From: a virus
UHGV virus genome: UHGV-0250870
Reading direction: 5' to 3' (one strand)
DNA length: 44,878 bases
Position numbers: made by a program. This document shows, piece after piece, positions 21,001-27,000 of this stretch. The first letter of the stretch is position 1; every line of letters starts with the position of its first letter.

Positions 21001-24000
21001 CGGCCCTGTTTGGCTCCTACGATGCGCAGACCGGTGTACGCCATATCAAGGAAGTTTTTATCCTTATCCCCAAGAAAAACTCGAAGTCCACGCTGGCCGC
21101 GGGGATCATGATGACTGCACTGTTACTGAACTGGCGGCAGGCGGCGGGTTACACGATTCTGGCCCCGACTGTGGAGGTGGCGGCCAACGCCTTCAACCCT
21201 GCCCGGGATATGGTACGACGTGACGATGATCTGGATGACCTCTGCCAGGTACAGACCCATATCCGGACCATCACCCACAGGGTGACAGACACCACCCTGA
21301 AGGTGGTGGCTGCCGATCCGAATACGGTGTCCGGTATCAAGTCCGTGGGTACGCTGATTGATGAGTTGTGGCTGTTTGGCAAGCAGTGCAAGGCGGAGGA
21401 CATGTTACGTGAAGCCATAGGCGGCCTTGCCTCCCGCCCGGAAGGGTTTGTGGTGTATACGACCACCCAGTCGAATGAACCGCCTGCCGGGGTGTTCAGA
21501 CAGAAACTGCAGTACGCCCGGGATGTGCGCGACGGCAAAATTCATGATCCGCACTTTCTGCCGGTGATATTTGAACACCCTCCTGAAATGGTGGAAAGCG
21601 GGGCTCACCTGCTGATGGAAAACCTCGCCATGGTCAATCCGAATCTCGGCTATTCAGTGGATGAGGCCTTTCTGTACCGGGAGTACCGTAAAGCCCGGGA
21701 AGCCGGTGAAGAGACATTCCGGGGGTTCATGTCAAAACACGCCAATGTGGAAATTGGTCTTGCCCTGCGCTCTGACCGCTGGGCGGGGGCTGATTTCTGG
21801 GAAGAGCAGGGCCGTTGTATCAGCCTGGACGATATCCTGCGTCGTGCTGATGTGGTGACGGTGGGGATTGACGGCGGAGGGCTGGATGATCTGCTGGGGA
21901 TGTATGTGATTGGGCGTGACCGGGAGACCCGCGAATGGCTGGGCTGGGGCCATGCCTGGGCGCATGAAACCGCGGTGGTCCGACGGAAGAGCGAGGCGTC
22001 CCGGTTTCAGGATCTTGTTGCCTGTGGAGATATGACCATTGTCCGGCGTGTCGGGGATGACACGGCGGAAGTGGCGGAATATGTGCGTCGCATTCATGAG
22101 GCTGAGTTACTGGACCATATCGGTATTGACCCGTCAGGGGTGGGGCAGATTCTGGATTCACTGGCGGAAGCCGGGATCCCCGACGGAATTGTGGTGGGGA
22201 TAAGCCAGGGCTGGAAGCTGGGCGGGGCCATCAAAACCACCGAGCGCAAACTGGCTGAAGGGGTACTGGTGCATGGTGGCCAGCCCCTGATGGCCTGGTG
22301 TGTCGGCAATGCCCGGGTGGAGCCTAAAGGTAACGCCATCCTTATTACCAAACAGGCCAGCGGACGGGGAAAAATTGACCCGCTGATGGCGCTCTTCAAT
22401 GCGGTGTCCCTGATGTCCCTGAATCCGGAACCGAAAAAGAAAGCGTATGAGGTTTTTTTCATATAACCCTGCTCACCCTGTAACCATCATGAACCGCTGC
22501 GGCGGTTTTTTTTATTTTCAGGAGGCTGATGTGACTCTTAAACGGGCCTGTTCCCTGCTGACGGTGAAATCCTTCAGTGAGGATGAACGGGTGATCACCG
22601 GGATTGCGTCAACGCCTTCTCCGGATCGGGATGGTGACATCCTGGAGCCGGAGGGGGCGGAGTTTGGCAGTACGATCCCGTTTCTCTGGCAGCATGACCA
22701 TTCCCGCCCTGTAGGCCAGTGTACGGTGCGTCGGATCAGGGAAGGGCTGGAAATCACGGCAACACTGGTGAAGCCCGTACCGGATATGCCGTCGCAACTG
22801 GCTGCCCGGCTGGATGAGGCATGGGCTGCCATTAAGACCGGGCTGGTCAGGGGGCTTTCTGTGGGCTTCCGGCCCCATGAATACACTTATCTGGACGGAG
22901 GCGGACTGCATTTTCTGCGCTGGGAGCTGATGGAGGTGTCTGCCGTCACCGTGCCCGCGAATGCGGAATGCACCATCCAGACCATTAAATCTTTCGACCG
23001 CCCGTTTTCTGCCGCGTCCGGCAACCGGAAACCGGTGGTGAAAATCGCATCTTCTGCCGGCGCTTCGGCACAGTCAATAACCTCTTTTCATAAGGAAAAG
23101 TCAGCAATGAATACTGGTGAACAGATTAAAAGTTTTGAAAACAAGCGTGCGGCGCTGGCAGCCTCCCTTGAGGAGGTCATGACCAAAGCCGCAGAGGAAG
23201 GCCGCACACTGGATGTGGAAGAGGAAGAGCACTACGACAACACCGCAGCGGAAATCCGTCAGGTGGATGCGCACCTGAAGCGTCTGCGTGAACTGGAAAC
23301 CAGTAAGGCCGCCACGGCACAGCCGGTGAAACAGGCCGGTAACGGGAATGTGGCCACGGTGGCTTCAGCGCCGGTGATCCGTGTTGAGCAGAAACTGGAG
23401 AAGGGGATTGGTTTCGCCCGCTTTGCCAAATCACTGGCCGCGGCTAAAGGTGTCCGCTCTGAAGCCCTGGAAGTGGCCCGTCGTCAGTATCCGGATGACA
23501 GCCGTCTGCATCATGTCCTGAAGTCGGCGGTGGGGGCAGGGACCACCACGGACCCACAGTGGGCAGGCAGCCTGTCTGAATATCAGGAATATGCGCAGGA
23601 CTTTATTGATTATCTGCGTCCGCAGACCATTATCGGGCGATTTGGTCATGGCGGGATCCCGGCACTTCGTCAGGTGCCGTTCAATATTCGCGTGCATGCC
23701 CAGGTGTCCGGTGGTGCTGCCGGCTGGGTGGGGCAGGGTAAGGCCAGACCCCTGACGAAGTTTGATTTTGAATCCATCACCTTCAGTCATGCGAAGGTGG
23801 CGGCTATTGCGGTACTGACGGAAGAGCTGATCCGTTTTTCCAGTCCTGCCGCCGATGCGCTGGTCCGTAATGCACTGGCGGAAGCGGTGGTGGCGCGTCT
23901 GGACACAGACTTTGTGGACCCGAATAAAGCGGCGGTGGCCGATGTTTCCCCTGCGTCCATCACCCATGATGTGAAGGGCACGGCATCAACCGGTAACCCG

Positions 24001-27000
24001 GATACGGATGCGGAAGCCGCGTTTGGTCAGTTTGTGGCAGCAAACCTGCAGCCCACCGGTGCGGTCTGGCTGATGTCCAGCACAAATGCCCTGGCGCTGT
24101 CCATGCGTAAAAATGCGCTGGGTCAGAAGGAATATCCGGACATGACCCTGCTTGGCGGCACCTTCCAGGGCCTGCCGGTGATTGTCTCCCAGTACGTGGG
24201 TGACCAGCTGGTGCTGGTGAATGCGCCGGATATTTATCTGGCTGATGACGGCGGTGTGGCGGTGGATATGTCCCGTGAAGCGTCACTGGAGATGCAGTCT
24301 GAACCGACCAGCGACAGCAGCACACCGTCACCGGTGGAGCTGGTCTCCATGTTCCAGACCGGCAGCGTGGCCATCCGTGCGGAGCGCTGGATCAACTGGC
24401 GTCGTCGCCGTACCGCGGCAGTGGCGGTGATCACCGGTGTGAACTACGGAACTGCGTCCGGCGGCTGAGTCTGATGAGGAGGGCGGGAGGCGCGAGCTTC
24501 CCGCAGTAACTGATGGCAAAAATCCAGTATCTGCAGGGCACGCATGATGCCCGGGCCGGGGATATCCGTGATGTGGCACAGCCGTGTGCGGAGGTGCTGG
24601 TTCGCCTGGGGAAGGCGGAGTACATCACAGTGCGACGTCCGGCAGGTCAGAAAAAGAAACGTGATGCGGAGCATGGCGAATGTGGAACCTTTTGCGGCGA
24701 ACCCGAAAAAACCAGAAATCAGGACGTGATGTAAAAGAGGTGGGCTGGACCAGCCTGTTTCAGGCGGTGGCTGAGCCTTTTGCCGGTGCCTGGCAGCAGG
24801 GTGTGAAAGCCGATCCGGAAACCGTTTTGTCCTTTCACGCGGTGTTTTCTTGCATTTCGCTGATATCCCAGGATATCGCCAAAATGCGGCTGCGCCTGAT
24901 GCAGACCGATACACAGGGGATCCGCCGTGAAAAACGACAGGGGGATATTGCCCGTCTCTGTCGTCGTCCCAATGCACAGCAGAATCGTATCCAGTTTTTT
25001 GAACTGTGGCTGAACGCCAAACTGCGTCACGGCAATACGGTGGTGTTGAAAATCCGTAACTCCCGGGGGCAGATCAAAGAACTGCGTATTCTGGACTGGA
25101 GCCGGGTTGAACCTCTGGTGGCGGATGACGGCGAGGTGTTCTATCGCATTACACCGGACCGGAACTGCGGGATCACTGAGGCGGTGACGGTGCCTGCCAG
25201 GGAAGTGATCCACGACCGGTTTAACTGTTTTTTTCATCCGCTTGTGGGGCTGCCGCCGGTGTATGCTGCCGGGCTGGCGGCCACGCAGGGGCATCATATT
25301 CAGGAAAATTCGACGTCTTTTTTCAGAAATGGCGGCAGGCCGTCCGGGGTGATTGAGATCCCCGGCAGTATTACGGAAGAAAATGCGAAAAAACTGAAGA
25401 GCAACTGGGACAGCGGGTATACAGGCGAAAATGCGGGGAAAACGGCCATTCTGAGCAACGGGGCAAAATACAACCCCACGACGTTTTCACCGGTGGATGC
25501 GCAGACGGTGGAACAACTGAAGATGACCGCTGAAATTGTCTGTTCGGTGTTCCGTGTCCCGGCCTACAAGATTGGCGTGGGACAACCGCCTTCCAGTGAC
25601 AACGTGGAGGCGCTGGAGCAGCAGTATTATTCCCAGTGCCTGCAGACGCTGATTGAGTCCATTGAACTGTTACTGGATGAGGCGCTGGAAACGGGGGAAA
25701 ACGAGAGTACAGAATTTGATGTCACCACGCTGCTGAGAATGGACAGTGAGCGGCGCATGAAAACGCTGGGGGATGCGGTGAAAAATACGCTTCTCACGCC
25801 CAATGAGGCCCGTAAACGGGAGAACCTGCCGCCTCTGGCCGGCGGTGATGCACTGTATCTTCAGCAGCAGAACTACAGTCTGGAGGCGCTGTCCCGTCGT
25901 GATGCCCGTGAGGATCCGTTCGCGTCGACCGGGAAAACAGTTTCATCACAGCTGCCTGACGGCGCATCTGACGGTAATAAGGCCATAAGCGAAACAGAGC
26001 GTGATGCGGTGAAGGCGATGTTCAGGGGGATACTGCGAAAATGACAGAGCGTGAACTGTCCATTATCCGTGCGCTGGGTGAAGAATTCGCCACGGTGCTG
26101 GCGGATTTACAGCGCACATTTGAGGAGAAGATGGCCGCACAGTCGGGGGCGTTTGAAGAGAAACTGGCTTCCCTGTCTGCTCTGTTACAGAAGCATGTGA
26201 CGGTGGATGAGGTGCGCCCTGTTCTGCAGGCGATGATGAATGACGCCGTGGGGGCCATTCCGGTACCGCGCGATGGTCGTGATTATGATCCGGAGGTGCT
26301 GCAGCAGGCGGTGAATGATGCGGTCGCGAAAATACCGGTACCGGCGGACGGTAAAAGTGTCACTGCGGATGATGTACGCCCGATGATCGAGCAGATGGTG
26401 AAGGACGCAGTGAGTCATATCCCTGCTCCGCGCGATGGTCGTGATTATGATCCGGAGGTGCTGCTGAGGGCGGTGAATGACGCTGTCGGAAAACTTCCGG
26501 TACCGGCAGATGGAAAAAGTATCACACCGGATGATGTGCGTCCGATGCTCGAGCAGATGGTGACGGATGCCGTGAGTCATATCCCCGTTCCGCGCGACGG
26601 TCGTGACTACGATCCGGAAGTTCTGCAGAAGGCGGTTCTGGATGCGGTGAGTGCCCTGCCGGCTCCACAGGACGGGCGTGATGCTACGGCACTGGAAATA
26701 TTCCCGGCGATTGATGAGCAAAAATCCTTTCCCCGGGGCACGTATGCCACACACCAGGGCGGACTCTGGCGGGCGTATGAAAAAACGCACGGGATGCGGG
26801 GATGGGAATGCCTGGTTGACGGGGTGGCCGATATTGACGTCAGCATGACCGGCGAACGGTCGTTCACTGTGGTGGTCCGGCAGAGCAGTGGCCAGTGTAC
26901 GGAAAAAACATTTTCCCTGCCGGTGATGCTCTATCGCGGTGTATTCAGAACCGGCGAAACCTACCACCCCGGCGATACGGTGACGTGGGGGGGCTCGTTG

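Follow-up and report, generated by a model that had tools for sequence, protein, structure and literature searches.

In phage HK97, the head genes follow the order gp3 (portal), gp4 (protease), and gp5 (delta domain and capsid), and the protease is a separate protein that is targeted through its own C-terminal region, or tail. Nested genes for protease and scaffold are established in lambda (C/Nu3), HSV-1 (UL26/UL26.5), and Haloferax virus HFTV1 (gp17/gp17.5). The protease is encoded at the front, and a second start farther on in the same frame gives rise to a shorter, typically more abundant assembly protein with the same C-terminus. The placement of protease and capsid protein in one gene has been annotated as well. 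In actinobacteriophages, the product is called ‘major capsid and protease fusion protein’ (Arthrobacter clusters AM, AU, and AN; Microbacterium EE; Rhodococcus RRH1), and ORF003 of Pseudomonas phage PAJU2 (GenBank AP009624) is labelled ‘prohead protease fused capsid protein’. Products of the long-tailed lambdoid Stx-converting and related phages BP-4795, 2851, YYZ-2008, 1717, and JLK-2012 (genus Sawaravirus) already carry the name ‘major head protein/prohead protease’.

We analyzed a window of 44,878 nucleotides from the viral genome UHGV-0250870, in which an earlier note had pointed to a prohead protease fused to the major capsid protein and followed by the portal gene. Sequence comparison identifies this region as the head-assembly module of a lambdoid E. 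coli prophage belonging to the BP-4795 / 2851 / PAJU2 type. The DNA from 22447 to 26044 is 100% identical to that of E. coli ABU 83972, and likewise to that of other annotated E. coli genomes. The fusion protein is 95-98% identical to those of the five Stx-group phages named above, which have, together with the ABU 83972 prophage, the same order HNH-TerS-TerL-fusion-small ORF-portal-ORF-adaptor. The differences from these relatives are only allelic, and they chiefly concern the repeat copy number of the ORF after the portal gene and its fusion to the portal. PAJU2 shares the fusion architecture at 48% identity and the order of terminase, fusion, small ORFs, portal, ORF007, and adaptor, but infects a different host, and its portal gene is preceded by two small ORFs. 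Thus the arrangement is already present in public annotation and in the literature, and is not a discovery. The actinobacteriophage fusions follow the same one-gene idea, although they and the NCBIfam family NF045541 (‘prohead protease/major capsid protein fusion protein’) are sequence families separate from the fusion described here. The NF045541 profile scores 49.6 bits, below its cut-off of 525, and covers only residues 49-262; by this measure the gene at 22531-24468 has the same architecture and belongs to a different family.

The module lies on the plus strand, and at the head of the packaging/head operon is an HNH endonuclease gene (19588-19953; PF01844, E 3.8e-07; phrog_589), which is found upstream of TerS in most relatives. 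It is followed by the small terminase subunit (20170-20808; PF03592, phrog_641, RefSeq), read here from TTG 20170 while the RefSeq start of the identical gene is 20245, and by the large terminase subunit (20805-22466; TerL_ATPase and TerL_nuclease domains, phrog_9). A consensus scan placed a putative terminator-like GC hairpin with a T-run (22491-22516) between terL and the fusion gene. Downstream of the fusion gene there is a 73-aa ORF (24513-24734; phrog_829, E 7e-39) that overlaps the portal start by 55 nt; it has no Pfam or NCBIfam match, and its position is conserved in Enterobacterales relatives. The next gene (24680-26044) encodes 454 aa and had been proposed to be the portal, an identification that domain searches could have overturned. 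They returned instead an HK97-type portal protein, with PF04860 at E 1.1e-81 (275 bits, cut-off 39.1), TIGR01537 at 355.9 bits (cut-off 112), and 27% identity to HK97 gp3 (E 1e-24). The portal stop shares an ATGA overlap with a 353-aa ORF (26041-27102), which contains a 162-nt tandem repeat (26266-26636) and has a homologue after the portal gene in nearly all relatives. The head-tail adaptor, a gp6-like connector (27099-27425; PF05135, phrog_40), comes next.

The portal gene thus follows the capsid gene, and the order is protease-capsid-portal, in contrast to HK97. The synteny TerS-TerL-fusion-small ORF-portal-adaptor was present in all of the approximately 160 relatives fetched, down to 42% identity. 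The unfused Burkholderia phage vB_FUBS1 and the metagenomic locus L135 have homologous protease, capsid, and portal genes and share the order TerL-protease-capsid-small ORF-portal; they differ by a stop codon between the protease and capsid genes. The non-canonical order is therefore fixed across the whole lineage, unfused members included, and is not a local rearrangement.

The fusion gene (22531-24468) is contained in an ORF that runs without interruption from ATG 22447 to the stop codon at 24466-24468. Its start at GTG 22531 coincides with the RefSeq/PGAP start and is preceded by 5 nt by the Shine-Dalgarno (SD) sequence AGGAGG (22520-22525), while (A/T)GGAGG is found at the homologous starts of relatives. 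The product has 645 residues (69.2 kDa); the earlier count of 646 aa was right about the single ORF but included the stop codon. The combination of protease and capsid in this ORF was confirmed by Peptidase_S78 at the N-terminus (PF04586, 34.8 bits, cut-off 21) and Phage_capsid at the C-terminus (PF05065, 55.3 bits, cut-off 24.2), both above the curated Pfam cut-offs. A frameshift separating the two was looked for, and none was found; all close relatives likewise have the single ORF. The fusion ‘major head protein’ family phrog_617 matches over its whole length (E 1.9e-259), residues 25-667 as numbered from ATG 22447 aligning with positions 3-626 of the 626-position profile. Judged by these matches and by an AF2 model with clear domain layout (pLDDT 80.6), the product begins with a prohead serine protease of the HK97 family (S78), continues through a flexible linker into a scaffolding domain of the delta type, and ends with a major capsid protein of the HK97 fold.

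The predicted protease domain comprises residues 1-142 (22531-22956). It is followed by a disordered and poorly conserved linker (residues 143-192, 22957-23106), with variable columns and indels in the alignment and with pLDDT below 50 over residues 143-191. The earlier note had described a coiled-coil linker between the domains. There is indeed a helical segment, but the region consists of two parts, the disordered linker and then a helical domain of the delta/scaffolding type (residues 193-331, 23107-23523), as delimited by the AF2 model and profile alignments. This domain resembles the N-terminus of HK97 gp5 over residues 193-262, and probably on to about residue 331. It was modeled with long helices at 195-223 and 229-262 (pLDDT about 94), a disordered stretch at 267-283, and short helices within 293-334. 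Residues 4-67 of the 9gyi capsid protein N-terminus align to profile positions 196-259, and TIGR01554 (79.5 bits, cut-off 27.5) aligns its positions 3-355 from residue 204 onwards. The predicted shell domain (residues 332-645, 23524-24465, 33.1 kDa) has the spine helix, E-loop, and A and P domains of the HK97 fold, whereas its sequence is not detectably similar to that of the HK97 capsid by BLAST. Position 331 is Lys in 86 of 89 sequences, and by analogy with the HK97 cleavage at K103/S104, Lys331 is a candidate maturation site.

As in genes of the C/Nu3 type, an in-frame internal start with a putative ribosome-binding site is found downstream of the protease domain. This candidate site (23092-23109) consists of AAGGA (23092-23096) and ATG 23107-23109, which encodes Met193. 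In close relatives Met193 is invariant, and among 89 diverse homologues a Met occurs in 79 within a window of 10 residues where the delta domain begins, and a Val in six more, against a background Met frequency of 2.4%. At the DNA level, 62 distinct contexts (42-100% identity) were compared, and all but one have ATG at this position (61 of 62). An SD-like motif lies 5-12 nt upstream with a duplex energy of -5.3 kcal/mol or lower in 90% of contexts, a threshold reached by 24% of 812 other in-frame ATGs and by 16% of random codons; the contexts are phylogenetically related, and the Mann-Whitney p-value for them thus overstates their independence. The motif occurs in two codon registers (AAG GAA and AAA GGA) and has outlasted linker indels, which points to selection on nucleotides rather than on amino acids. 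On the other side, the conserved Met193 could be structural, as the first residue of the delta helix, and linkers rich in K, G, and E are by nature purine-rich. In unfused relatives the capsid gene begins exactly at the equivalent ATG. In L135 a TAA directly precedes it in the same frame, and P0260 and P0265 start at residue 193. A search of the accessible literature for expression, proteomic, or N-terminal data on this phage or any relative found none.

The persistence of this ATG and its SD-like motif in an otherwise unconserved linker, together with the unfused capsid genes that start there, suggests that the gene is nested. We consider it fairly probable that the head module works through such a nested fusion gene. 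Initiation at GTG 22531 would produce a 69-kDa long form containing protease and capsid; the short form, with delta and capsid domains (48 kDa), would start at ATG 23107 and correspond to an ordinary capsid precursor of the HK97 gp5 type. By analogy with HK97, both forms would co-assemble around the portal by means of their common delta and shell domains, so that the tethered protease domains end up inside the procapsid, an outcome that HK97 reaches through the C-terminal tail of its separate protease. The enclosed protease would then trim away the delta domains, the linker, and its own domain, with a cut probably beside Lys331, so that the mature shell protein has about 33 kDa. The protease would thus be covalently attached to its substrate, in contrast to the separately targeted protein of HK97, and gene order would have no mechanistic role, being a trait of the lineage. 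The wider proposal, also drawn from sequence, is that the fusion genes of a large proteobacterial phage lineage are nested in this way, the capsid precursor alone being made from the internal ribosome-binding site and ATG and the full-length product serving as a minority, capsid-tethered protease; we regard it as reasonably probable. Compared with lambda, HSV-1, and HFTV1, where nesting is established and experimentally shown, nesting is read here from conserved start signals, and the shared part would include the capsid protein in addition to the scaffold, which is all that those three share.

A less likely but still substantial alternative is that only the fusion is made. All capsid subunits would then be 69-kDa protease-delta-capsid chains at a 1:1 ratio of protease to capsid, with about 415 tethered, self-excising proteases per procapsid, and the internal ATG and SD-like motif would be a relic left over from the joining of the genes, or would result from the composition of the linker. 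As no stop codon intervenes between the domains, every use of the strong AGGAGG-GTG start must yield the long form. The annotators of PAJU2 and of the actinobacteriophage fusions regard the product as one protein, and by our own rough estimate an internal cargo of about 12.5 MDa would fit a T=7 procapsid. The balance of the two start sites varies between clades. In the clade of E. coli and Enterobacterales, the upstream signal is much the stronger; in the E. coli lineage a perfect AGGAGG compares with an internal AAGGA at a long 10-nt spacer, and the short form need not be dominant here. In distant clades, in contrast, the internal site is the stronger (AGGAGG or GGAGG, -10 to -12 kcal/mol), and the SD of the long form is weak (-5 to -7 kcal/mol). 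A relic in an indel-rich, unconserved linker should also decay, yet the ATG and the motif persist across the full range of identity and in both registers, and relatives with a stop codon immediately before this ATG have it as their only capsid start. These last observations speak against an obligate fusion.

The N-terminal domain has the assemblin-type fold of phage and herpesvirus proteases, and its Peptidase_S78 match covers residues 48-152 (GTG numbering). The motif GLS110VGF aligns with GMS114VGF of HK97 gp4, whose catalytic residues are His65 and Ser114. It is very improbable that this domain is a dead protease fold, retained as an additional scaffolding or internal-core domain, with cleavage absent or performed by another protease. 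Such a reading could draw on the score of the narrower equivalog model TIGR01543 (46.3, cut-off 59) and on a BLAST identity to HK97 gp4 confined to about 60 residues. However, His55 (22693-22695) and Ser110 (22858-22860), which align with the HK97 catalytic residues, are invariant in 18 and in 89 diverse homologues, and the motifs around them (DR.GD, GxSxGF, and ELS.V.xPAN) are conserved. In addition, a search of the head module from terL to the adaptor by ORFs, profiles, and RefSeq found no other protease gene.

The fusion is also widespread. The head module was matched in 1251 of 5426 complete E. coli genomes, and the uninterrupted ORF is present in 117 phage records, inducible Stx phages included. 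The great majority of the 150 top-ranking cluster representatives (38-54% identity) have one ORF of 630-680 aa, and fusions occur in alpha-, beta-, and gammaproteobacteria. A reading of the long ORF as artefactual or as a degenerate pseudogene, two genes of a defective prophage having been joined through an error of sequencing or a recent mutation, might be suggested by the many defective E. coli prophages, by the unfused relatives, and by the RefSeq flag ‘frameshifted’ that the identical prophage of ABU 83972 bears on the adjacent portal region, but this reading is effectively refuted by the recurrence of the intact ORF in those genomes and phage records, by hundreds of distant fusions of equal length, and by the invariant residues kept in both domains. 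The flag itself arises from comparison with the minority of relatives in which the portal and the next ORF are fused, and does not indicate damage here.

As originally stated, the finding is a correctly read case of a common, already annotated head module and matters little in itself; in practice it is useful for annotation. Different pipelines name the fusion gene ‘major capsid protein’, ‘prohead protease’, ‘capsid and scaffold’, or ‘hypothetical protein’, and label the separate ORF after the portal gene as ‘portal protein’ or as a frameshifted pseudogene. The internal start suggested by the conserved signals is the sole addition of this analysis to the known picture. If it is real, it would account for controlled protease loading without a targeting peptide, in the long-tailed Shiga-toxin phages among others, and would represent a third layout for linking protease, scaffold, and capsid genes. 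If nesting is true, the strategy of lambda C/Nu3 and UL26/UL26.5 would extend to a gene whose shared C-terminal part is the capsid protein, and the relative strength of the two start sites would set the stoichiometry of the protease.

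On the plus strand, an uninterrupted open reading frame runs from ATG 22447 to the stop codon at 24466-24468, and GTG 22531 within it lies 5 nt downstream of a perfect AGGAGG (22520-22525). The same GTG is the RefSeq start of the identical gene in Escherichia coli ABU 83972 (WP_000173054.1, named 'phage major capsid protein'). The earlier note had reported one 646-aa ORF joining a prohead protease to the major capsid protein; the single ORF holds, and the length is corrected to 645 residues (69.2 kDa), since 646 counts the stop codon. Pfam assigns the N-terminal part of this fusion protein to Peptidase_S78 and its C-terminal part to Phage_capsid, both above the curated cut-offs, and phrog_617 matches it end to end (E 1.9e-259). 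The observation of both functions in one frame is confirmed and its interpretation supported.

In the protease part, GLS110VGF is aligned with GMS114VGF of HK97 gp4, and two alignments, of 18 and of 89 diverse homologues, show His55 and Ser110 without variation. A sequence search of the PDB returned no solved relative of the S78 protease, and the match to T4 gp21 came from fold comparison only. For the capsid part, BLAST against HK97 gp5 gave nothing significant, and this homology is seen by profiles and structure only. The NCBIfam model for HK97 major capsid proteins (TIGR01554, 79.5 bits) aligns its positions 3-355 from residue 204, and thus the capsid homology begins just past Met193 and takes in the N-terminal delta region, a helical scaffold-like region probably extending up to Lys331.

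An AlphaFold2 model from an 89-sequence alignment (mean pLDDT 80.6) replaced one from a shallow alignment (45 sequences, at least 74% identity; pLDDT 43), in which the capsid domain was unusable. It predicts a beta-rich domain at residues 4-139 (pLDDT ~90), disorder at 143-191 (below 50), two long helices at 195-223 and 229-262 (~94), further disorder at 267-283 (below 50), three short helices at 293-334 (82-88) and an alpha/beta domain at 346-635 (mostly above 80). At residues 150-180 of the linker (about 22978-23070), K153-S154, A161-A162-x-G164 and G177 are strongly conserved across the 89 homologues and the rest is variable; K153-S154 stands in the context IKSxD, comparable to MKSVD in HK97 gp4. 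These motifs may mark sites of self-cleavage or the point where the protease fold ends.

Several complete E. coli genomes contain the segment 22447-26044 with 100% identity, and matches to it occur in 1251 of 5426 genomes; the 8-kb module shares 94-96% identity with 95 phage records, chiefly long-tailed Stx1a, Stx2c and Stx2a converting phages. An exhaustive search covered representatives at 50% identity, and by far the most of its best 150 hits are single proteins of 630-680 aa whose alignment spans residues ~3-642 at 38-54% identity; named sources of homologues include Pantoea, Serratia, Erwinia, Pseudomonas, Delftia, Phyllobacterium, Paracoccus and Asticcacaulis. The identical genomes and the fusions of the same length in distant relatives exclude an unnoticed frameshift or an assembly artefact, and the protease and capsid are joined as the earlier note had claimed. 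Natural unfused genes also exist, in a metagenomic locus (L135, 3174-5210) and in Burkholderia phage vB_FUBS1 (1905-3891). In L135 the two ORFs share one frame and are parted only by a TAA directly before the capsid ATG, so the fused and unfused states differ by one codon. Elsewhere in the window, at 13736-13985, are three tRNA genes with anticodon CAT (Met according to ARAGORN, tRNA-Ile in the annotation of the corresponding ABU 83972 gene), Arg-TCG and Arg-TCT. The early region of the window is offset by ~1.4 kb relative to ABU 83972, so the window does not come from precisely this strain. In ABU 83972 the corresponding trio follows the genes for an antiterminator and a DNA methyltransferase and precedes a SASA-family esterase and the lysis genes, at the position occupied by stx genes in Stx-converting relatives.

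The ORF at 24680-26044 is indeed a portal gene downstream of the capsid gene, as indicated by PF04860 (E 1.1e-81), TIGR01537 (355.9 bits against a cut-off of 112) and 27% identity to HK97 gp3. In HK97 the order is portal-protease-capsid, whereas here the protease-capsid gene precedes the portal. We mapped the window's proteins onto ~160 loci fetched from viral contigs and genomes, and every locus containing these genes had the order TerS-TerL-[protease-capsid]-(small ORF)-portal-(ORF353-like)-adaptor, down to 42% fusion identity and including an alphaproteobacterial Chelatococcus genome. Because the order is constant in all loci, including those of vB_FUBS1 and L135 with separate protease and capsid genes, it is a fixed trait of the lineage, neither a local rearrangement nor tied to the fusion. 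The small ORF, present at this place in most relatives, is in the window a conserved 73-aa ORF (24513-24734; phrog_829, without a Pfam or NCBIfam match) whose last 55 nt run past the annotated portal start. For the small terminase gene (20170-20808) the start is ambiguous, the mechanical ORF beginning at TTG 20170 and the identical gene in RefSeq at 20245. A terminator-like GC hairpin with a T-run behind it (22491-22516) separates terL from the fusion gene and lies immediately before the Shine-Dalgarno (SD) sequence of the latter; relatives also have a T-rich stretch before the SD, and putative terminators are annotated at comparable head-gene junctions of HK97.

The portal stop overlaps the start of a 353-aa ORF (ORF353, 26041-27102) in an ATGA, as in most relatives, distant ones included. 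A minority of E. coli prophages carry one more G in a G-run (GGGGG to GGGGGG; window 26024-26028), which puts the portal in frame with ORF353, giving 'portal' proteins of 807-1023 aa (loci L110, L024, L023 and L103). Such fusions probably account for the 859-position 'portal' family phrog_2271 and for the 'frameshifted' pseudogene flag of the identical ABU 83972 gene in RefSeq; the variation in the G-run may itself be biological or stem from sequencing errors in a homopolymer. A programmed -1 frameshift at the portal stop (CGA AAA TGA, 26036-26044), considered as an account of the same two annotations, was rejected given the ATGA overlap in most relatives and the extra G in the fused versions. 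Almost all members of the lineage have an ORF353 homologue behind the portal (in Pseudomonas phage PAJU2, ORF007), and the database name 'portal protein' for this ORF apparently spread by contagion from the fused versions. No solved relative of ORF353 was found, and our guess is a head decoration or accessory protein. It carries a tandem repeat at 26266-26636 (162 nt or 54 aa, 2.3 copies; one more unit in ABU 83972) and a weak CBM_5_12-like motif near the C-terminus.

The least conserved stretch of the fusion protein, residues 159-192, contains indels, and nonetheless Met193 directly after it is invariant in close relatives. Where the delta helix starts, 79 of 89 diverse homologues have a Met within a span of 10 residues and six more have a Val, against a background Met frequency of 2.4%; among 62 distinct DNA sequence contexts, the codon at the Met193 position is ATG in 61 and GTG in one. 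An SD-like motif, in the window TAAGGAAAAGTCAGCAATG, lies 5-12 nt upstream of this internal ATG, and the predicted duplex with the anti-SD reaches -5.3 kcal/mol or lower in 90% of the 62 contexts. It does so at 24% of the 812 other in-frame ATGs that these ORFs contain and at 16% of random codons (p about 4e-20 by Mann-Whitney, with no correction for relatedness). E. coli reads the AAGGA as AAG-GAA (Lys-Glu), other Enterobacterales as AAA-GGA (Lys-Gly), and its distance to the ATG varies with linker indels; the two codon registers and the shifting spacer suggest selection on nucleotides rather than amino acids. The capsid gene of unfused relatives starts exactly at the Met193 position, in L135 with the ATG right after the in-frame TAA, and residue 1 of the homologues P0260 and P0265 is aligned to residue 193. 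In distant clades the internal motif is AGGAGG or GGAGG (-10 to -12 kcal/mol), encoding varied residues (PQEG, PEEG, PKEG, AQEG, PGRG), while the long-form start in these clades has a weak SD only (-5 to -7).

These sequence patterns make it fairly probable, in our judgment, that the fusion gene is nested. GTG 22531 would then give a 69-kDa protease-delta-capsid protein (the long form) and ATG 23107, the codon of Met193, a 48-kDa delta-capsid protein (the short form). Sharing delta and shell domains, the two would co-assemble, and the protease would enter the procapsid attached to some of the subunits. After assembly it would cut away itself, the linker and the delta domains, leaving a mature protein of ~33 kDa. 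The candidate maturation site, Lys331 followed by (A/S)AVxAGTT, has Lys in 86 of 89 sequences and resembles K103/S104 of HK97. In its logic the scheme matches lambda C/Nu3, HSV-1 UL26/UL26.5 and HFTV1 gp17/gp17.5, the last reported recently, but here the shared C-terminal part would include the capsid protein itself. Beside the strong internal motifs of the distant clades stands the E. coli lineage, with a perfect SD at the upstream start and a weak one, spaced by 10 nt, at the internal start. This favours an obligate fusion, with the long form alone made and the internal start signals left as relics, a reading that we hold to be rather unlikely; expression or proteomic data deciding between the two were not found in the literature. 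An artefact, set against the identical genomes, or a dead protease, set against the invariant His55 and Ser110, is very improbable even when both are taken together.

The literature on BP-4795, PAJU2, Stx phage morphogenesis and internal translation, as searched, yielded neither virion proteomics nor N-terminal data on this capsid family. The Stx2 morphogenesis paper was set aside as evidence, as it concerns the unrelated short-tailed Sp5/933W head, and so was the 'prohead protease fusion' of the CBASS escape preprint, a protease-scaffold protein of phage Bas13 with a different architecture. The fusion itself has been named repeatedly. The GenBank record of PAJU2 describes ORF003 as 'structural protein; prohead protease fused capsid protein', in the order terminase, ORF003, two small ORFs, portal, ORF007, ORF008 and adaptor, and phages YYZ-2008, JLK-2012 and Stx2a_WGPS6 carry the annotation 'major head protein/prohead protease(-inase)'. 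An NCBI model with the product name 'prohead protease/major capsid protein fusion protein' exists, of which the window protein is not a family member. Several actinobacteriophage genome papers use 'major capsid and protease fusion protein', such fusions are discussed explicitly by Klyczek et al. 2017 (PMC5513430), and a transcript of a Symbiopectobacterium phage shows the same gene order (PMC8156552). The protease-capsid fusion with a downstream portal is thus an already known and very common phage head module, to which the conserved internal start is the modest addition of the present analysis.
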